Positions 3,966 to 26,577 of a stretch of 64,000 bases of DNA are shown here, piece after piece. This DNA comes from an uncultured Clostridia bacterium (lineage in GTDB: Bacteria > Bacillota > Clostridia > Christensenellales > UBA1242), in contig CALWCW010000068.1 in NCBI GenBank assembly GCA_944376495.1, positions 14,456 to 78,455 on the forward strand. The letters run 5' to 3'. The notes under the pieces are model-generated. The model saw only the letters and a list, made by a program, of their open reading frames with translations. It had not been told where the DNA came from and did not search any database. The position numbers and the translations under genes are program-made. Position 1 is the first letter of the stretch, and each line of letters opens with the position of its first letter.

Positions 3966-6701
3966 ATGGGACTTTTTGGAAATGAAAATAAAGCTCAAGT
4001 AAAAAAATTAAGAAAAATTGCTGATAAAGTAATTGCTTTAGAGGACAAATATAAAGATTATACGAATGAACAACTGCGAGCTTGCACTGATGAATTTAAA
4101 AATAGATATAAGGTTGGTGAAAGTCTTAATGACCTTTTACCTGAAGCATATGCTGTTGTCAGAGAAGCGGCAACAAGAGTTTTGAATATGCGTCATTTTT
4201 ATGTTCAAATTTTGGGTGGAATTGCTCTTCATCAAGGAAGAATTGCAGAAATGGCAACAGGTGAAGGTAAAACCTTGGTGGCGACTTTACCTGCTTATCT
4301 TAATGCTATCACAGGAAAAGGCGTTCACGTTGTGACAGTCAATGAATACCTTGCTAAACGTGATGCCGAGTGGATGGGAAAGGTTTATAAATTTCTTGGA
4401 CTTACTGTCGGGGTAACTTTAAACGGACAAAATGAGGAGCAAAAGAAAAAAGCATATCTTGCCGACATAACTTATTGCACAAATAATGAACTAGGTTTTG
4501 ACTATCTTCGTGACAACATGGCAAGAAGTAAGAATGAAAGAGTTCAAAGAGGATTAAATTTTGCAATAGTCGATGAGGTTGATAGCATTTTAATTGATGA
4601 AGCAAGAACACCTCTTATTATAAGCGGACGTGGCGGAAAATCTTCAGAAGGCTATGTTATAGCACAAAAATTTGTCAAAACTTTGAAAGAGGAATCTGAC
4701 GTTGAAATAGATGTAAAAACAAAACAAATCAATTTGACTGACAAAGGCATCTCAAAGGCAGAGGCTTTTTATAAGATTGACAGCCTTTCAGATATTGAAA
4801 ATCTTGAAATAAATCATTATATTAACAATGCACTACGTGCAAACTTTATCATGCACAGAGATGAAAATTATATTGTTAATAAAGATAAAGAAGTGGTTAT
4901 TGTTGATGAGTTTACTGGTCGTTTATCTCCTGGACGTAGATTTTCATCTGGACTTCATCAAGCAATTGAGGCTAAAGAGGGAGTCGATATAAAAGATGAA
5001 AACCAAACTTTTGCGACAATAACATTCCAAAATTTCTTTAGATTATATTCAAAATTATCTGGTATGACAGGAACTGCTAAAACAGAAGAAGGGGAATTTA
5101 GAACAATTTATAATTTAGATGTTGTTATTATTCCACCAAACCTTCCAAAACAGAGAATAGATTATCCTGACATCATGTATGTTACAGAAAAAGGAAAAAT
5201 TCCTGCAATTATTGAAGAAATTAAGGAATGTCAAAAGAAAGGACAGCCAGTTTTGGTCGGAACAATAAACATTGATAAGTCAGAAGAACTTTCAAAAGAA
5301 CTTAAGCATGCTGGCATCAAACATCAAGTTTTGAATGCCAAAAACAACGAAAAGGAAAGCGAAATTGTTGCTCAAGCAGGAAGAAAGGGTGCGGTCACTA
5401 TTGCTACTAATATGGCAGGTAGAGGAACTGATATTTTACTTGGCGGTAACCCTGAATTTATGGCTACTAAGGAAATGAGAGAAAAGGGATTTAGCGAAGA
5501 AGAAATCTCATATGCAACCGCATTTAACTATGTTGATGATGAAAAATTAAATCAAGCAAGAGATGAATATAAAAAACTTTATGCAGAGTATAAAAAGGTT
5601 ACAGATAATGAAAAAGAAGAAGTAAAAAAGGTTGGCGGATTGCATATTGTCGGCACTGAAAGACATGAATCACGACGAATTGATAATCAGCTTCGTGGTC
5701 GTGCTGGACGTCAAGGTGACCCAGGTTCTAGTGTATTCTTCATATCTCTTGATGACGACCTTTTCAAAAGATTTGCTACTGATAAACTTAAAAAAGTGCT
5801 TTCGATTTTCAAATTTGATGAAAATATGCCAATTCAAATGAAAATGATTTCACGTCAAGTTGAAGCATCTCAAAAGAAGATAGAACTTCAAAACTTTGGA
5901 ATTAGAAAGACAGTTTTACAATTTGATGATGTTATGAATAAACAAAGAGAAATCATTTATCAAGAGCGAAATGAGGTTTTAGATGGAAAACCTGTCCATG
6001 ACCAAATTATGAGAATGTTCCCTGAAGTTGTTGCTAAAGCAGTTTATAAAGTAATAAGCGATGATAAACCTTATTATCAATGGGATTTACAAGCACTAAA
6101 TAAAGAGTTAGAAAATGGATTGCTTGAAAAAGATAGCAATCAAATTACAGAAGAATTTGTTGAAGAGTGTGACGCACAAGATGTAATTGAAAAAGTGCTT
6201 GACCTTATTGATAAACGTTATAAAGAACGTCAAGAGGAAGTTAAGGAAATTGGAGCAAACTTTGAAGATATTGAAAGAAATGTGCTTTTGCGTATGGTTG
6301 ATATAAATTGGATGAGTCAAATTGAAGATATGCAAATCATGAAAGATGAGATAATTTCAAGACAGTTTGGGCAACAAGACCCTGTTCTTGCTTATAAGAA
6401 AGAAGGGTTTGAAATGTTTGATAATATGATTTATAAGATTAAAGAAAACACTTGTAAAGTATTATTAAACGCTAAAATTCAACAAGCACCAACAGTTCCA
6501 CAGCCACAACCAGTAAAAATTATGTTTACAGGCAAAGAATTGACTCCAGAAGAAAGAGCCGCACAAAAAGCAAAAGGGAAATTGCAAGTTCAAAAAACAG
6601 TTTATAATGATAAACCAAAAGCGGGCAGAAATGACCCTTGCCCATGCGAAAGTGGAAAAAAATATAAAAATTGTTGTTGGGATAAAGACCATATTTCATA
6701 A
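3966..6701 (+). CDS. secA: Preprotein translocase ATPase SecA
   Basis: 911 aa. Shows the DEAD-like motor (MATGEGKTLVATLPAYLNA, DEVDSILIDEARTPLIISG) and the C-terminal zinc finger CPCESGKKYKNCC. GGAG RBS upstream. Confidence 0.97.
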   Translation: MGLFGNENKAQVKKLRKIADKVIALEDKYKDYTNEQLRACTDEFKNRYKVGESLNDLLPEAYAVVREAATRVLNMRHFYVQILGGIALHQGRIAEMATGEGKTLVATLPAYLNAITGKGVHVVTVNEYLAKRDAEWMGKVYKFLGLTVGVTLNGQNEEQKKKAYLADITYCTNNELGFDYLRDNMARSKNERVQRGLNFAIVDEVDSILIDEARTPLIISGRGGKSSEGYVIAQKFVKTLKEESDVEIDVKTKQINLTDKGISKAEAFYKIDSLSDIENLEINHYINNALRANFIMHRDENYIVNKDKEVVIVDEFTGRLSPGRRFSSGLHQAIEAKEGVDIKDENQTFATITFQNFFRLYSKLSGMTGTAKTEEGEFRTIYNLDVVIIPPNLPKQRIDYPDIMYVTEKGKIPAIIEEIKECQKKGQPVLVGTINIDKSEELSKELKHAGIKHQVLNAKNNEKESEIVAQAGRKGAVTIATNMAGRGTDILLGGNPEFMATKEMREKGFSEEEISYATAFNYVDDEKLNQARDEYKKLYAEYKKVTDNEKEEVKKVGGLHIVGTERHESRRIDNQLRGRAGRQGDPGSSVFFISLDDDLFKRFATDKLKKVLSIFKFDENMPIQMKMISRQVEASQKKIELQNFGIRKTVLQFDDVMNKQREIIYQERNEVLDGKPVHDQIMRMFPEVVAKAVYKVISDDKPYYQWDLQALNKELENGLLEKDSNQITEEFVEECDAQDVIEKVLDLIDKRYKERQEEVKEIGANFEDIERNVLLRMVDINWMSQIEDMQIMKDEIISRQFGQQDPVLAYKKEGFEMFDNMIYKIKENTCKVLLNAKIQQAPTVPQPQPVKIMFTGKELTPEERAAQKAKGKLQVQKTVYNDKPKAGRNDPCPCESGKKYKNCCWDKDHIS

Positions 6702-6836
6702 TGTCATAATAAAAATTTTTCAATATTCAAGCATGAAATTAAGTTATATTGAATAAATTTAAAAAAAACAAAAAATATTGTGCATTTGTTTTGAAAAACT
6801 TTTCTTTTATGATAAAATCATTTCATAGGAGCATTC

Positions 6837-7118
6837 ATGAAGAGTTATACTTATCCTGCTATTTTTATTAAAGACCAAGAAAATGATGGTTATCAAGTGT
6901 TGTTTCCAGATTTAGAGGTTACAACAAAAGGTGAATTTATTGAAGAAGCTTTCTTGTATGCAAAAGCAACTTTAAAAGCATACTTTGTTTATATTGAAAA
7001 ATATGACCTTGATTTTAATATGCCTACAGAATATGAAATTGTAAAAAGTGCATGCGGACAAGATGAAATTGTTATGCTTGTAGATGTGGATGTTAATGAA
7101 AATGACTATGAGGAATAA
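6837..7118 (+). CDS. HicB-like (UPF0150 antitoxin-fold) small protein, no partner toxin visible
   Basis: 93 aa. The N-terminus YPAIFIKDQENDGYQVLFPDLEVTTKGEFIEEAFLYAKATLKAY matches the HicB N-domain pattern from memory. There is no DNA-binding tail and no adjacent hicA-size ORF. Confidence 0.5.
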   Translation: MKSYTYPAIFIKDQENDGYQVLFPDLEVTTKGEFIEEAFLYAKATLKAYFVYIEKYDLDFNMPTEYEIVKSACGQDEIVMLVDVDVNENDYEE

Positions 7119-7155
7119 AATTTTATATATTTTTTGTAAAATTTTTAATTAATTG

Positions 7156-7184
7156 TTGACAATTATTTTAGTATGTGTTATTAT
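7156..7184 (+). promoter_or_regulatory. Sigma-A type promoter of the rpmG-secE-nusG operon
   Basis: TTGACA (7156-7161), 17-nt spacer, TGtTATTAT extended -10 (7176-7184). Confidence 0.5.
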
Positions 7185-7188
7185 ATAA

Positions 7189-7221
7189 CTAGCACTTTCC
7201 GAGAGGGGTGTTAGTTTTTTT
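7189..7221 (+). promoter_or_regulatory. Terminator-like hairpin plus T7 in the rpmG leader (possible attenuator)
   Basis: CTAGCAC (7189-7195) pairs with GTGTTAG (7208-7214, one G-U), followed by TTTTTTT (7215-7221). It lies between the promoter and the rpmG RBS. Confidence 0.3.
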
Positions 7222-7236
7222 GTTAGGAGAAGAAAA

Positions 7237-7398
7237 ATGGCATTACCAAAACGTAAAAATATTATACTTGCTTGCACAGAGTGTCAAGAAAGAAATTATG
7301 CAACAAGCAAAAACACAGCTGCAAATCCTGAAAGAATTGAAATTGTTAAATTTTGCTCACGTTGCGGGAAAAGAACTGTTCATAAAGAAACAAAATAG
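7237..7398 (+). CDS. rpmG: 50S ribosomal protein L33
   Basis: Hand-translated 53 aa: [53 protein letters not shown]. Shows the CxxC...CxxC zinc ribbon and an AGGAGA RBS. It is below the 60-aa cut-off of the ORF track, which lists a spurious 7208..7402 frame instead. Confidence 0.9.
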
Positions 7399-7413
7399 TT
7401 AATCGGAGGTTTT

Positions 7414-7842
7414 ATGGCAAAAAATAAAAAATCACAGAAACCAAAGAAAAATGTGACAGAAGCTGTAACGCCTTCTGATGTTTCTATTGAAACTGAAACT
7501 CAAAATCAAGTAAATGAAATTGAAAATAGTGAAGAAACAGTAGAAACAAAACAGGTTGCTGTTGAAAAAGAACAAGACAACAAGAAGCAAAATAACAGCA
7601 AAGATAATGACAAAAACAAAAAAGATAAAGAGGGCAAAAACAAAAAGAAACCTAAAAAGGAAAAGGGCAAATTAAAAAGAAAGACAAAAGAAACCTTTTC
7701 TGAACTTAAAAAAGTGACTTGGCCAACTTTTGGTGAAGTTTGCAAAAAAACAGGTGTCGTATTGGTTGTTGTTCTTATTTTTGCAGTTGTTATTTTTGGG
7801 ATTGATTATTGTTTAGGCCTACTTGTTGGGTTGTTAAGATAA
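7414..7842 (+). CDS. secE: Preprotein translocase subunit SecE with a ~95-aa Lys/Glu/Asn-rich N-terminal extension
   Basis: The C-terminus ELKKVTWPTFGEVCKKTGVVLVVVLIFAVVIFGIDYCLGLL is the canonical SecE TM segment. The position between rpmG and nusG fits. GGAGG RBS. Confidence 0.85.
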   Translation: MAKNKKSQKPKKNVTEAVTPSDVSIETETQNQVNEIENSEETVETKQVAVEKEQDNKKQNNSKDNDKNKKDKEGKNKKKPKKEKGKLKRKTKETFSELKKVTWPTFGEVCKKTGVVLVVVLIFAVVIFGIDYCLGLLVGLLR

Positions 7843-7853
7843 GAGAGGTTGAA

Positions 7854-8549
7854 ATGGAAGAAGAAACAATTTTAAACCAAAATCAAGTTGAAAATGAAAC
7901 TCAACAAATTAGTGAAGATTCTTTAGAAAATGCTGCAAAAGAAACTAAAGCAGAAAATTTGGAAGAAAGTTCTACGCAAACTGAAGAACTTAATGATGAC
8001 CAAATCGCCTATAAAGAATTTGTAGATTCTCTTCCAACGCATTGGTATGTGTTGCATACTTTTTCAGGGTATGAAAATGTTGCGAAAGAGAATTTGGAAA
8101 CTATGGTTGAAAAATTCAACTTGCAAGATAGAATTTTTGACATTATCATTCCTATGGAAGATGTCGTTGAAGAAAAAAATGGCAAAAAGAAACTTGTTCA
8201 AAGAAAATCAATGCCTTGTTATATCTTTATAAAGATGAAATATGCAGATGATATTTGGCATAATGTTATAAGAACACGTGGTGTTACTGGCTTTGCTGGG
8301 CCAAAAGGCCGTCCATTGCCACTCCCTGAACATGATATAATGAAATTTAAACTTGAAAAAATTAAGGTTGATGTTGACCTTTCAGTAAATGATAAAGTTG
8401 AGATTATAGATGGACCATTAAACGGACAAGTTGGGACTGTTTTATCAATTATTACAGAAACAGGTATTGTCAGTGTAGAAGTTGAAATGTTTGGTCGTGA
8501 AACCGCTGTTGACGTTGAAATTTCACAAGTTCGTAAAATTAATGCCTAA
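7854..8549 (+). CDS. nusG: Transcription termination/antitermination factor NusG (about 60-aa acidic N-terminal extension)
   Basis: NGN domain WYVLHTFSGYENVAKENLE and a KOW region (VEIIDGPLNGQVGTV). I prefer ATG 7854 (GAGAGG RBS, just after the secE stop) over the track start at 7809, which overlaps secE. Confidence 0.9.
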   Translation: MEEETILNQNQVENETQQISEDSLENAAKETKAENLEESSTQTEELNDDQIAYKEFVDSLPTHWYVLHTFSGYENVAKENLETMVEKFNLQDRIFDIIIPMEDVVEEKNGKKKLVQRKSMPCYIFIKMKYADDIWHNVIRTRGVTGFAGPKGRPLPLPEHDIMKFKLEKIKVDVDLSVNDKVEIIDGPLNGQVGTVLSIITETGIVSVEVEMFGRETAVDVEISQVRKINA

Positions 8550-8636
8550 TTTTAATTTAGTTAAAGCATAAAGTTAGATATTTTAGACTGAAAAGTTTAA
8601 ATATTGTCCAAGCATGACATTAAACTGCTATAGGAA

Positions 8637-8673
8637 TGTGGGAGAACGGAACTGCTACCGTTTGCTTACCACA
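8637..8673 (+). promoter_or_regulatory. Possible L1-binding leader hairpin of the rplK-rplA mRNA
   Basis: TGTGG-GAG-AACGG-(loop)-CCGTT-TGCTTA-CCACA forms a helix with an asymmetric internal loop containing GGGAG, immediately 5' of the rplK RBS. The resemblance to the L1 autoregulatory site is from memory only. Confidence 0.3.
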
Positions 8674-8687
8674 AAAGGAGGGAAAAA

Positions 8688-9116
8688 ATGGCAGAGAAAA
8701 AAATTGCTGCAGTTGTAAAATTACAACTCGATGCAGGTAAAGCCACTCCAGGACCTCCAGTTGGTTCTACGTTAGGACCTCATGGAATAAACCTTGGTGC
8801 CTTTACAAAAGAATTTAATGAGAAGACAGCTTCTCAAGCAGGACTTAAAATTCCTGTAGTAGTGACTATCTATGCAGATAGAAGCTTTTCGTTTGTGCTC
8901 AAAACTCCACCAGCAGCTATTCTTATTATGAAGGCTATTGGACTTGAAAAGGGTTCTGCAGTTCCAAACAAAACAAAAGTCGGACAAATTACTAAAGCAC
9001 AAGTTAGACAAATAGCCGAAACAAAAATGCCTGATTTGAATTGCACATCAATTGAATCTGCTATGTCTATGATTGAAGGTGCCGCTCGTAGTATGGGCGT
9101 CGTTGTAGTTGACTAA
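8688..9116 (+). CDS. rplK: 50S ribosomal protein L11
   Basis: 142 aa. [37 protein letters not shown] is the typical L11 N-domain. Confidence 0.97.
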
Positions 9117-9127
9117 GGAGGGCGAAA

Positions 9128-9808
9128 ATGAAAGTTACAAAAAAACAAGCTCAAGCAAATGAGATGATTACTCAAAAATCTTATGATGTAGCAAGCGGAT
9201 TTGAAACTCTTTTATCTCTTCCTAAAGCGAAATTTGATGAAACAGTTGAACTTCATGTTAGACTTGGTGTAGATGGAAAAAATGCTGACCAACAAGTTAG
9301 AGGTGTTTGTATTCTTCCTCATGGAACAGGAAAAACACTAAAAGTTCTTGTTATCGCTAAAGGTGATAAGGCTGACGATGCTGTTAAAGCAGGTGCTGAT
9401 TATGTTGGTGCAGAAGAAATTGTTGCTAAAATTCAAGGTGGATGGCTTGATTTCGACGTTTGTATCACAACTCCTGATATGATGGGTGTTGTTGGACGTG
9501 TTGCTAGAGTTTTAGGACCAAAAGGTTTAATGCCAAATCCAAAGAGCGGAACTGTTACTATGGACGTTACAAAGGCTATCAATGATGCAAAAGCTGGTAA
9601 AGTTGAATACAGACTTGATAAAACAAATAACGTTCATGTAATTTTAGGAAAAGTTAGTTTTGGAAAAGAGAAGTTAATTGATAACTTTAATACAGTAATT
9701 GAGGCTTTAATTAAGGCTAAACCAGCAGCAGCAAAAGGACAATATCTAAAGAATGTTGCAATTGCTACTACAATGGGACCTGGACTTAAATTAAACGTTA
9801 CAATGTAA
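9128..9808 (+). CDS. rplA: 50S ribosomal protein L1
   Basis: 226 aa. Motifs: [24 protein letters not shown] and [15 protein letters not shown]. Confidence 0.97.
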
Positions 9809-9825
9809 TTAAATAATGTTTAAGA

Positions 9826-9882
9826 CAAAAACTACGTTTTAGAATAAATAAAACATTTATTCTTCCAAACGTAGTTTTTTTG
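9826..9882 (+). terminator. Rho-independent terminator after rplA
   Basis: AAAACTACGTTT...AAACGTAGTTTT outer stem with inner stem AGAATAAAT/ATTTATTCT, followed by a T run. Confidence 0.7.
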
Positions 9883-9974
9883 TTATAATTTGACAATTGA
9901 TATTATCATAATAATTTAAATTTAAGACAAAATAATATTATTATTAAAAAATGTTTATTTTGACACCATTTTTC

Positions 9975-10002
9975 TTGACGGGGGGGGGTATTGTGGTATT
10001 AT
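9975..10002 (+). promoter_or_regulatory. Candidate promoter with a poly-G tract in the -35/-10 spacer
   Basis: TTGACG (9975-9980), 16-nt spacer mostly made of the G run, then TGgTATTAT extended -10 (9994-10002). It lies about 30 nt upstream of ATG 10034. Confidence 0.5.
9980..9988 (+). repeat. G9 homopolymer
   Basis: Read directly as gacGGGGGGGGGta. It is the only long G/C homopolymer I noticed in this AT-rich window. Confidence 0.95.
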
Positions 10003-10056
10003 AAAATTGAAAATGATAAATAGGCGGTGACAAATGATAAAATTGAGATATTATAA

Positions 10057-11241
10057 TTGTTTATTATTTGCTTTTTTTTAATAATTAGTGGCATTATTTT
10101 AATTTTCATTCCATTTAACACAAATGCAGCTGAAGCTCATTTATATATTGATTTAATATATTTTGATGAAAATGGAAATCAAGCACCAATACCTTCATCT
10201 TTGACATCTAGTAATGTTAAAAATTTGTTTACAGTCACATGGGGTAATGGTTCTAGTCAAAGTGTTGATGCTCTTATTTTTAATGATTACGATTCTTCTT
10301 TTACTTTATATAACTTTTATATGTCTGATGTAAGAAATATAAGTGTTTATTTAGCATATTCAAGTGGAGGAATTTCAGCCTTTAATTACTCTTATAAACC
10401 TTATGCAATGTTGGGGATGAGTTCCTATTCGGGTGCTTTTTATAATTATACCATGTCACAAGCCTCATCTCTACAAAATACATACAATTTTCCTAATAAT
10501 TATCGAGTATATTTGATTTTTAGTTATTGTTATGATATAACAATTATTGATACTCAATTTGGTGAAACGCAAACTTATCAAGCACCTGCAAATTGTTGGT
10601 TTGGGTTAAGTTCTCCAACTTCTCATATAGGCTATACATTTTTAGGTTATTTTTCCTCTTATTCTGGAGGGACGGGATTGAGTTATATTGCTCCAGTTAC
10701 TTCAAATCAAACCATATATGCTAGATGGGAAGCGAGTAAATATGCTATTGTATTAGATAAGCAAGGAGGGACAGGAGGAGATTCAAATGTAACTGCAACA
10801 TATAATACAGCAATGCCAACAATTCAAATACCGACGCGAGAAGGTTATACTTTTAATGGTTATTTTACAAGGACAAATGGAAGCGGAACAAAATATTATA
10901 ATTCAGACGGAACTAGTGCTAGAAATTGGACATCAACAAGTGGAACAACTTTATATGCTTATTGGACGATAGAAAGATATAATATTAATTACTATGATAT
11001 TAGCACCAGTGATGGAATTACAGGGACTGCAAGAAATATTACATATAATTCTTCACTATCATTAAAAACACCAAATTCTAGAATAGGTTATACATTCGTT
11101 GGGTGGCAATACACTGTTAATGGAATTGAATATATTATTAGTAATTTAAATTGGACAGTGGAGGATTTAGGTGATAATAATGATACAGTCAATTTTATAG
11201 GACAATGGACTCCTAGAACTGATTACCTGTTTCAGGTGTAA
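10057..11241 (+). CDS. Secreted Listeria-Bacteroides repeat (InlB B-repeat / Flg_new) protein; start ambiguous because of a T8 tract
   Basis: 394 aa. Three repeats of the type GYTFxGYF...G...Y......TLYAxW (GYTFLGYFSS..IYARW, GYTFNGYFTR..LYAYW, GYTFVGWQYT..FIGQW). The hydrophobic N-terminus ends in NTNA-AEA. The track start is a TTG with no obvious RBS; the RBS-associated ATG at 10034 is one frame off. Confidence 0.75.
   Translation: MFIICFFLIISGIILIFIPFNTNAAEAHLYIDLIYFDENGNQAPIPSSLTSSNVKNLFTVTWGNGSSQSVDALIFNDYDSSFTLYNFYMSDVRNISVYLAYSSGGISAFNYSYKPYAMLGMSSYSGAFYNYTMSQASSLQNTYNFPNNYRVYLIFSYCYDITIIDTQFGETQTYQAPANCWFGLSSPTSHIGYTFLGYFSSYSGGTGLSYIAPVTSNQTIYARWEASKYAIVLDKQGGTGGDSNVTATYNTAMPTIQIPTREGYTFNGYFTRTNGSGTKYYNSDGTSARNWTSTSGTTLYAYWTIERYNINYYDISTSDGITGTARNITYNSSLSLKTPNSRIGYTFVGWQYTVNGIEYIISNLNWTVEDLGDNNDTVNFIGQWTPRTDYLFQV
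10072..10079 (+). repeat. T8 homopolymer inside the signal-peptide coding region
   Basis: Read directly as gcTTTTTTTTaa. Read from ATG 10034, the frame stops at TAA 10079-10081. Inserting one T would fuse MIKLRYYNCLLFAFF to LIISGIILIFIPFNTNAAEA. Confidence 0.95.
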
Positions 11242-11420
11242 TATTTGATATAATCCAATTATAGCCGAATGTTATATTCGGCGAACTCGGTTCATTATCT
11301 ATATGATTTAAATAGTTATATTTTAAAAAACTAACTAATAAATCTTTATAATAAAAGGTTAAAAATAAAGTTTTGAATTTAATGCAAATAAAAATTACAA
11401 TATATTCATGTTATTTTGTA

Positions 11421-11456
11421 AAAAAATCTCTTAAGAATTTTCTTAAGAGATTTTTT
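11421..11456. terminator. Bidirectional terminator between convergent surface-protein genes
   Basis: AAAAAATCTCTTAAGA-attt-TCTTAAGAGATTTTTT is a perfect hairpin flanked by A and T runs. Confidence 0.7.
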
Positions 11457-11620
11457 GTCGTCAATTGTGAAGTTAATTTCAAATTTATAAATTAATCTCA
11501 AAATTAATGTTACATTTAAGCATTCTATATTAAAGAATTCTAATTAATTAATTTGGAATTTTAGAAAAGTAAATGTAAAAATTTAATAAATTAATTAATT
11601 TTTTTGTTTTTTTCTTTCTA

Positions 11621-14600
11621 TTATTTAACTTTTTGACGTTTTCTTAATGCTAATGTAATACCAATGATTGCGGCAACTGCAATTACTCCAAATACAATAG
11701 CCATAATTGCAAATCCATTCAATGGGTCAGTTTTTTCTACCTTATAAGAGTAAAAAAGGTGACCGCTGGCTGTATAGATTTGAATATAATGAACACCGCT
11801 AGAAGTAATAGTTATAGTTGATGTTTCTCCCATTGAGGCAATTGTATCAGAATTGTAATTATATATAGATGAGCCAATTCTAATATAGGAATCACCAATT
11901 GCATCATAGTAGTTTTGAACATTTAGAGTGATTGTTATATTGCTAGTTGTGCTTGTGCCTTCTGGAATTGAAACAGTAATTGGAGGAGTTGCAACATTTA
12001 TCCATATTTCAAATGTAAATTCTTCACCGATAGTGTTTAAATACACGCTATCATTAGGACAAATAGTAATTGTATATCTTCCACCGCCTGTTTTTTCATC
12101 TAAATATGAGAGAAGCAATTCAGACAAGTAAACTTTATTATTTATAACTACTGTATCAAGATTTGAAATTTCAATCAAATCTTCTGTAATATCACGAGTA
12201 TCTTTTATGACTGATTTAATGTAATAATTTCCGTAAGTTGTAAATTCAAAAGCATAACGCGATTCATTTTTATTTATAATAGAGAATTTAAATTCAACCG
12301 TTCTAATTGGAATACCTGTTGTGCTAGTTGCTGTGAATGTAACTACATAATATCCAGCCTCTTCAAAGGTATATTCATTGTTTCGAGCAATATAGCCTGT
12401 TGTGCTGTCTGCATTTGTTCTTGCCGAATATTCTACTCCATTACGTTTTACAGAGATTGTTGGATAACCAGTAGGGTGATAATAAGTAGAAAGGTTAACG
12501 AGTGATAATGTTACAGAACTGTTATAAACGGCATTTTGAATAGGTTCTGTTATGACGGTATTACCTTCACTATCTGTTGAAGTTACTAAAAGTGGAGTAT
12601 AGTTCAAGAAGATTAAATCAAAGTATTCACTGCTACCAAATAATTGGACATTAGCAGGAGTGCATGAATCGTATAGTCTTAACCTATAAGAACCAGCCTT
12701 TTCTAGATAGATGTAAGAAGCATCATTTTCTTGATAAATTTCTGGGTAAATATTTATGTATTGTCCATTGAACAATTTTAATACCTCAATATGAACAACA
12801 TTTTGCTCAATGCCGTAATATCTTGAGAAACTTATCTTTAATCTGTCAAAATCGGCATTTTGAGCAGTTATAAGAGCAGAGGTTTCACTTTCTATTGATT
12901 CAATATTTCCAGACGCATTTTCATAATTAAATTGTGAAACAATGTCGTCAGTTTCTTCAATATATATAATTACAAAATCACCTCTAGATTCATCACATAC
13001 ATAGTTATATATTTCAACTCTAATATCTGTGCCAGTTGGGTCTTCGGCAATTAGATTTACGTTTACTCCTAATTCTTCATTTGGAATAATACTCAATCGA
13101 TTTCCCTTATCATCATACCTAACACTAACAATATAAGTTGTAGGATATTGAATACCTGATGTGCTAACATAAGAAATGTCACTTCGTTCTACATTAATTC
13201 CATCAACAGTAATATAGTAATAAGATGAAGCTGAATCTAAAATAGAAATTTGGTATATTGCACAAAGATTAGTAAATATTGTGTCAGAATCATACTTGAT
13301 TAAAATTAAATAATCACCAACACCGCTTATTGTATATCCACTTGTGGCAGAATTGTCACTATTCATATTTTCCCAAGTAGATCCGTTATCTCTTGAAAGA
13401 TAAACAGAATATGAATAACCTTTTTCATAATTAAATTCGCCTTCATAATCAAGAGATTGACCATCTTTAAAGTAAACGGATATGTTTTGAGAATAGGTTG
13501 TTATTGTTCGAGCAGAGGCGGTGTAAGGTGTTCCATAGAAGTTTACTGTATATGATGGTAAAGTTCCTAATTCAGTAATAGGATTTTGATTTTTATCATT
13601 GAAGATAATAGCTCCATTTGGAATATCATTCATAGTTGTTGTTACAAAAGGAAGTTGATAATATATAACAATGTGATAAATATCAGTTAGAGTACCTGTT
13701 TCAACATCAAATACTTCAATTCTATAATAATCGTTGTAAATATTTGCATCTGTTGGAGATAGGTTGTAATAAGAAATGTTATTTGCTCCATCATTTCTTT
13801 CGATAGTTCTTGTAATTTCTTCATCATTGCTGTTATATATTTGGACTGAATAGAGTAGAGTATTATACGAGAATCTTATTGTTTGGTCAGAAATATAAGT
13901 TGTTGAGCCATCACTTTCACTAATTTCATATATTGTGGAATCTCCAGATATTTCATCATATGCAACTTCGTTTGCAAGTTGAATTATAGTTTGAGTTCCG
14001 CCAAAATTATCAGTAATTTCCCATTTAATTTTTTGAGATGCGTTTGCACCTAAATTAATAGAAATTTGCAAAGTTGTACCATTTGCTAAAGTATTAAATG
14101 TGATGTAACTTGGCATAGGAGTGAAATCTTCTGTTGGTACCCATGTCCCATAAGGAGACTGATAGGCATCCATTATAAGAACCCACTTGTCAGTATCAAC
14201 AATACTATCATCAAATTGATATATTTTTATATCAGTAGGGAAGATGTAACTTGTTGTTGTGCTTTCAACTTCACTGTTTGTAGGAACAGTTATATTTAAA
14301 ATAGCAGATTGTATTAATGGGTCTTCAACTTTATCAGATCTTATAGAAGCATCCCTGATTGATAGATAAATTATAGTACTTGTTCCATTATATCTATCTG
14401 TTAAAGTCATGTTATGTTTATTGCTTGACGATGATACAGACTCAAAAATAGAATCCAATGTAGTTTGTTCAAATACAACACCTGTAGAGTTGAAGATTAC
14501 TCTGTAAAGTTCATTTTCGTTAAGCCATGGAGATTTCATGTATCGAACTTCACCTTGACCTGAAATTTGAACATAGAACATAGCCCATGGGTCTGATTGA

Positions 14601-26561: not shown

Positions 26562-26577
26562 TTTTTTTTTTTTTTTT
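26562..26577. repeat. T16 homopolymer in a convergent intergenic region
   Basis: Read directly as gataTTTTTTTTTTTTTTTTaaaaag. Confidence 0.9.

Follow-up and report, generated by a model that had tools for sequence, protein, structure and literature searches.

The combination of a frameshift at a 5′ homopolymer and a poly-G promoter, in a gene for a surface protein, relies on a mechanism already familiar from Listeria, Neisseria and other bacteria. In the opa genes of Neisseria, CTCTT repeats lie in the region coding for the signal peptide, and their high switching rates have been well measured. The porA gene of Neisseria meningitidis reportedly carries a poly-A tract in its coding region. Another tract, made of G residues, is located in the spacer of its promoter (PMC3639595), and gonococcal porA has retained a variable promoter tract despite its broken coding region (PMC5320596). 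In Listeria monocytogenes, shortening of the 5′ poly(A) tract of inlA from A7 to A6 leaves an 8-aa product (Orsi, Bowen and Wiedmann, 2010; PMC2831843).

The locus that we describe here belongs to an uncultured Clostridia bacterium (UBA1242; assembly GCA_944376495.1, contig CALWCW010000068.1). The window, that is, the whole stretch of DNA that was analysed, covers 64,000 nt and lies on contig C68 of a draft genome of 1.21 Mb (29% GC, 96 contigs). Its relevant features, all on the forward strand, are these:

9975..10002 (+): predicted sigma-70-type promoter, with -35 TTGACG, a 16-nt spacer containing G9 (9980-9988) and a TG-extended -10 TATTAT
10023..10030 (+): Shine-Dalgarno-like motif GGCGGTGA, its GGCGG core ending 6 nt 5′ of ATG 10034, with CAA between
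10034..10081 (+): 15-codon stub MIKLRYYNCLLFAFF followed by TAA, the putative native start and signal-peptide n-region severed from the body of the gene
10057..11241 (+): 394-codon open reading frame from TTG, the 3′-truncated body of a predicted secreted or surface protein with InlB B-repeats (Flg_new)
10072..10079 (+): T8 homopolymer, T9 in in-frame alleles, situated where the core of the signal peptide has its codons for Phe-Phe-Leu
11224..11302 (+): 79-nt segment inverted with respect to full-length alleles (blastn against L015 and L039), the mark of a deletion-inversion

Read from ATG 10034, the codons are ATG ATA AAA TTG AGA TAT TAT AAT TGT TTA TTA TTT GCT TTT TTT TAA. The T8 run spans codons 13-16 of this frame and its eighth T is the first base of the stop, TAA at 10079-10081, which leaves a stub of 15 aa. 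The sequence-only reading from which we started had described the Shine-Dalgarno-linked ATG, the stop after 15 codons and a run of exactly eight T, and all three are borne out. It had also held that the long frame can be started only at TTG 10057, a start devoid of Shine-Dalgarno motif and of charged n-region. A scan for starts agrees: TTG 10057 opens the long frame straight after an in-frame TAA at 10054, nothing resembling a Shine-Dalgarno motif is present in the 18 nt located 5′ of it, and the next canonical start of the long frame comes no earlier than codon 49. A peptide starting at this TTG retains a hydrophobic core of 20 residues but lacks an n-region altogether; its net charge there is 0, against +2 for the ATG form and +2 to +3 for paralogues; the n-region of the orthologue that we discuss below has a charge similar to that of the ATG form.

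The length of the run sets the frame. The frame opened by the ATG ends at 10079-10081 when the run is T8 and continues into the body of the gene when it is T9. Adding one T gives ...AFFLIISGIILIFIPFNTNAAEA, which is the exact N-terminus of natural alleles, and the textbook signal peptide that had been predicted from a single extra T is recovered in this way, with the same n-region charge of +2 that is met in paralogues. The proposal that ATG 10034 is the native start holds as well: both its Shine-Dalgarno motif and the residues MIKLRYY are kept in T9 alleles and in an orthologue with 81% identity. Judging from this conservation, we take ATG 10034 to be the true start; the annotation of the gene should mark both the frameshift and the truncation, and no start should be called at the TTG.

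Set beside the systems described above, this arrangement is closest to the poly(A) tract at the 5′ end of inlA in Listeria. Each combines an A/T homopolymer in the first ~15 codons with an internalin-family surface-protein gene and a repair-proficient Firmicute host; in each, the loss of one base leads to a tiny stub, and alleles of both kinds, in frame and out of frame, are met among natural strains. What characterizes the inlA type, an A/T run of 7-9 nt within the first ~20 codons whose frameshift gives a stub, is found here. By contrast with inlA, the run of the window is T8/T9 and falls among the codons for the hydrophobic core of the signal peptide, poly-G is present in the promoter spacer, and the putative OFF allele is also truncated at the 3′ end. 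With meningococcal porA the locus shares a homopolymer between -35 and -10 and another within the reading frame that follows, for a surface protein in each case, and with gonococcal porA a variable promoter tract ahead of a broken coding region. It differs from porA in its host, a Gram-positive-type uncultured gut Clostridia, in the run, made of T and not of A, and in the protein, which is unrelated. As in opa, the repeat that sets the frame is part of the sequence coding for the leader peptide of a surface protein and would give translational ON/OFF control, but opa has a pentamer repeat whereas the window has a short mononucleotide run. Poly-G of variable length is also present in the promoters of a family of surface-protein genes in Treponema pallidum (tpr, tp0126); there, however, the tract is in the promoter only, with no run in the coding region.

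The 394-codon frame matches PF09479 (InlB B-repeat / Flg_new) with 44.7 bits, for a cut-off of 27, and the 824-aa allele described below matches it with 46.9 bits. The gene adjoins rplK-rplA on the downstream side and has its own predicted promoter. Loci from other strains were gathered by exact look-up, the neighbouring ribosomal protein L1 leading to 23 same-species contigs and the 394-aa product to 23 more; pattern scans for the flanks of the tract or for the 5′ end gave no match in JGI metagenomes or in species-representative genomes. The tract is T8 in 15 fetched loci, which come from several independent Illumina assemblies: SPAdes assemblies (names in BRZ_), a second scaffold set (names in ONAT22-1_) and Logan contigs (ERR4096xxx, SRR22360835). 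Certain samples are represented by two assemblies, but the agreement still extends to at least two studies and three pipelines. Four loci, from two contigs (L015 = L030 = L034; L039), have T9. The first, L015 (ERZ28613423), from a 98.8% identical lineage, has G10 and T9, and its gene is called from ATG with 824 aa; the second, L039 (Logan SRR14630083), has T9 and again 824 aa. The tract aside, fetched T8 alleles are identical across the 1185 gene bases compared, and over these 1185 nt L039 has 0 differences from the window and 11 T8 loci. Two marks of translational phase variation are present here: a repeat inside the open reading frame that sets the frame, and a length that differs between otherwise identical strains.

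Clustered at 90%, the products fall into five forms, of 394 aa, 824 aa (two forms), 402 aa and 350 aa. The T8-type product of 394 aa is recorded in 18 contigs, the two 824-aa forms in 3 and the 402-aa form in 2. This 402-aa form is the truncated allele of the window read from ATG through FAFFL, i.e. with T9. The 350-aa form (P0056, from a Logan contig) has the in-frame N-terminus with another late truncation, and ends in ...SLSLKNQILE; it would represent a third way in which this gene is broken in nature.

Further away, the orthologue with 81% identity (P0057; loci L040 and L041) has kept the promoter cassette (with G9 or G10), the ATG, the Shine-Dalgarno motif as GAGGCGGTGACAAATG, and MIKLRYY. 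Its tract is interrupted as TTTTGTGTT (codons TTT GTG TTA), hence it has no homopolymer. The T tract is therefore not kept across relatives, being T9 in the 98.8% identical lineage and interrupted in this orthologue. A comparison of orthologues in search of the in-frame version had been suggested with the initial observation, and the T9 alleles and the 81% orthologue supply it, all of them open at the upstream ATG; orthologues that would start at the TTG and lack the upstream ATG segment, the outcome that would have spoken against the proposal, are not what these sequences are. Because the T9 alleles and the 81% orthologue are in frame from the ATG, with Shine-Dalgarno motif and n-region, the in-frame state would be ancestral, and we infer that T8 arose from it by contraction of one base, in the direction T9 to T8.

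The gene is damaged at its other end too. Aligned by blastn, the window consists of positions 290-1708 of L039, then of the reverse complement of L039 positions 1806-1884, then of L039 from position 2959 onwards. This deletion-inversion removes about residues 398-814, i.e. about 52% of the protein (about 427 C-terminal residues), and the open reading frame ends 5 codons into the inverted 79-nt remnant. Every T8 locus has it, and so does the 402-aa form with T9. A site-specific invertible element at the 3′ end was considered and rejected, the left junction having only a 2-nt microhomology and the deletion being large. The 3′ lesion is irreversible. The inverted remnant (11224-11302) includes a palindrome, GCCGAATGTTATATTCGGC, that might have favoured template switching.

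In other strains the same slot is occupied by another gene. Loci L013, L017, L031, L033, L035 and L036 have there a different B-repeat gene of 848 aa (MKKIKINHNYLFF...), with flanks that are 99.5% identical and the same G9 promoter (window 9809-11620 compared). On the strength of these alignments the locus 3′ of rplA is best described as a variable surface-gene slot, where alleles appear to be swapped, truncated and frameshifted. Elsewhere in the genome, a paralogue (43% identity) occupies C46:11808-14384 as an open frame of 858 codons. It has a homologous promoter, the spacer of which is G-rich yet interrupted (TTGACGGAACGGGAATTTGTGTTATAAT), and T7 in its signal-peptide codons.

The predicted promoter of the window is the top-scoring promoter match (10/12, with TG). 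Its cassette is present four times in the genome, on contigs C6, C37, C68 (the window) and C88. The copies of C6 and C37 precede genes with products that start with MK.. and continue with a hydrophobic core, while that of C88 is followed only by a 22-codon open reading frame before the contig ends. A free-gap scan of the genome contigs for the cassette was too permissive, none of its seven matches with at least six G in the gap being a poly-G cassette. Among near-identical strains the G tract has 9 or 10 residues. A homopolymer in the promoter spacer with a length that varies between strains is the signature of phase variation of the porA/opc/tpr type, and the predicted promoter would fall in this class. 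Window positions 9980-9990, when compared with L014, L022 and L039, come in the versions G9+TA (window), G9+AA, G10+AA and G9+AAA. The spacer varies beyond its G count, so that its total length is 16 or 17 by two different routes.

Runs of G or C in this genome peak sharply at 9-10 nt (n = 12), with a single run of length 7 and a single run of length 8. Those of 9-10 nt are located at C6:1203, C37:812, C88:5959, C13:20323, C85:9258, C9:1365, C10:18584, C10:29064, C76:3873, C79:595, C18:2444 and C11:2252; six runs of this length sit in -35/-10 spacers, and several others in other contexts. To us they suggest candidate slippage tracts spread over the whole genome.

A lone T8 run is, by itself, ordinary in a genome with 29% GC, which contains 152 T8 and 191 A8 runs. 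A run that splits a Shine-Dalgarno-linked ATG from a long open reading frame with no good alternative start is rare, with 2 cases genome-wide. The other case is an A8 run at C55:8555-8563, placed 63 nt past an AAGGAG-linked ATG, where the frame of a 183-codon open reading frame is broken with no alternative start. Coding sequences of the host genome avoid T runs: Phe-Phe is written TTT-TTT in 48% of cases when 70% would be expected from codon usage, and Phe-Phe-Leu is written TTT TTT TTA in 4 of 56 cases (7%) when 30% would be expected. The idea that mismatch repair is missing was rejected, since MutS (frame of 870 aa) and MutL (658 aa) are both found intact in the genome. In three places an A run breaks the frame in the middle of a gene and leaves 80 or more open codons on either side: C13:5185-5192 (A8), C64:4896-4903 (A8) and C66:2201-2209 (A9); these may be further slippage alleles, or pseudogenes. 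Much longer runs exist as well. A T16 is located in the window at 26562-26577, ~170 nt 5′ of a BclA-like collagen-repeat gene, and other A/T runs of 14-17 nt are at C52:160, C53:1107, C53:1151 and C82:27585.

How should the T8 allele be understood? The obvious alternative raised with the initial observation was a sequencing or assembly error, the true tract being T9 and the 5′ end of the gene intact. Homopolymers are indeed error-prone, and the genome is a draft in 96 contigs, yet T8 recurs in its 15 loci through many samples and three assembly pipelines, while T9 is seen in other samples. Furthermore, out of the 11 A/T runs of at least 7 nt found in the fetched strain loci (6128-12900), the tract at 10072-10079 alone varies, the other runs of 7-8 nt, such as the A8 at 6761-6768, being invariant, and a mid-gene frame break coincides with a long homopolymer for only 3 of the 394 such runs of the assembly. 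An assembly riddled with homopolymer errors was rejected on this latter ground, and we find an error at the tract itself hardly credible. Another possibility is that the T8 allele is real and still expressed, being 'low' and not 'off', through addition of one U by RNA polymerase, -1 slippage of the ribosome, or initiation at TTG 10057. Insertion of a single base would restore exactly this frame, and single-base transcription insertions are known to predominate in A/T runs and to rise exponentially with run length (PMC5574713). The succession U UUU UUU followed by the stop UAA provides a slippery context for ribosomes, and the hydrophobic core is still there in the TTG-start peptide. Against this stand the want of a stimulatory structure downstream (fold z = -0.70), the TTG with neither Shine-Dalgarno motif nor charged n-region, and the fact that any product would lack its C-terminal half; the existence of in-frame T9 alleles and of an in-frame orthologue also implies that recoding would not be the normal mode. 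That T8 amounts to a 'low' state of this kind seems very unlikely to us: as far as the sequence allows us to judge, it would leak at most, recoding not being the designed mode. A programmed -1 frameshift and programmed transcriptional slippage were both rejected, relatives being in frame and the downstream fold unremarkable by the same z value; the slippery U UUU UUU alone is present.

A reversible switch, the two-level one put forward with the initial observation, is the alternative that we take more seriously. T8 and T9 would interconvert at high frequency as a translational switch on top of a G9/G10 switch in the promoter spacer, the window being caught in its OFF phase. Both tract lengths do occur on an otherwise identical haplotype, at the one A/T run of the region that varies; T9 is met on the truncated allele too (402 aa, 2 contigs), which could be a reversion. 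A surface protein associated with a promoter tract of 9 or 10 G in the same lineage bears the marks of a contingency locus, and the run persists where coding T runs are otherwise avoided. In a repair-proficient Firmicute, the 5′ poly(A) of Listeria inlA flips ~1000-fold faster than point mutation (PMC2831843). But a single slip event is enough to account for all the data, T8 is seen on the truncated allele only and never on a full-length one, and it persists unchanged in two flanking backgrounds; the 81% orthologue does not share the tract, the genome has MutS and MutL, and a run of 8-9 nt is on the short side if switching is to be fast. A survey of the genus (121 genomes) adds evidence on both sides. 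A second out-of-frame case combining G9 and T8 was found in another species, at G073:C3 (loci L166/L183; 30468-30576, minus strand), with TTGAC-G9, a Shine-Dalgarno motif and the peptide MKRCVIFFVY ended by a stop (codons ATG AAA AGA TGT GTA ATT TTT TTT GTT TAT TAA). It is one T short: T9 would join its ATG to an open reading frame of more than 240 codons. Yet such a run is present in only 2 of the ~11 G9-promoter signal-peptide genes found in the genus. In its T8 state, the G073:C3 gene has a second ATG 8 nt downstream and in frame, opening a signal peptide without charges. On balance, a fast two-level switch at the locus of the window strikes us as rather unlikely, and the stronger proposal, that a G9 promoter with T8/T9 in the signal peptide makes a recurrent two-tier switch selected in the genus (G073 included), with T8 kept 'low' by +1 transcriptional slippage, as distinctly unlikely.

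We prefer to the fast switch a mutation by slippage, at a hot spot able to flip, which has silenced an allele in decay. The window would probably carry a genuine, inherited T9-to-T8 slippage allele, silencing a decaying copy of a gene of the contingency type, whose promoter contains poly-G. Slipped-strand mispairing would have dropped one T from a T9 tract coding for Phe-Phe-Leu within the signal peptide. Translation begun at ATG 10034 would now end after 15 codons, at a TAA whose first base is the last T of the run; the 394-codon body would then not be produced together with its export signal, leaving the gene OFF or heavily crippled. Loss of expression in the T8 state is what the frame predicts, and the tract presumably switches at a low rate. 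The succession of events would be full-length T9, truncated T9, truncated T8. We read the window copy as a silenced, decaying allele because the C-terminal 52% has also been lost by deletion-inversion, and, from its sequence, it looks more like such an allele than like a switch at rest. T8 and the truncation are found together in two flanking backgrounds, 11 SNPs apart in 1400 nt, and the truncation being shared by both argues for one origin of T8, followed by recombination. With both lengths met on the same haplotype, the tract is nevertheless a likely mutational hot spot, one that can flip.

To our knowledge, control of surface proteins by slippage has hardly been described in uncultured gut Clostridia lineages of this kind. 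The natural in-frame T9 (ON) form and the T8 (presumably OFF) form of one and the same gene are now documented in such a lineage, and the surface-protein gene that appeared 'broken' in a metagenome-assembled genome is a real allele of the population, not an artefact.
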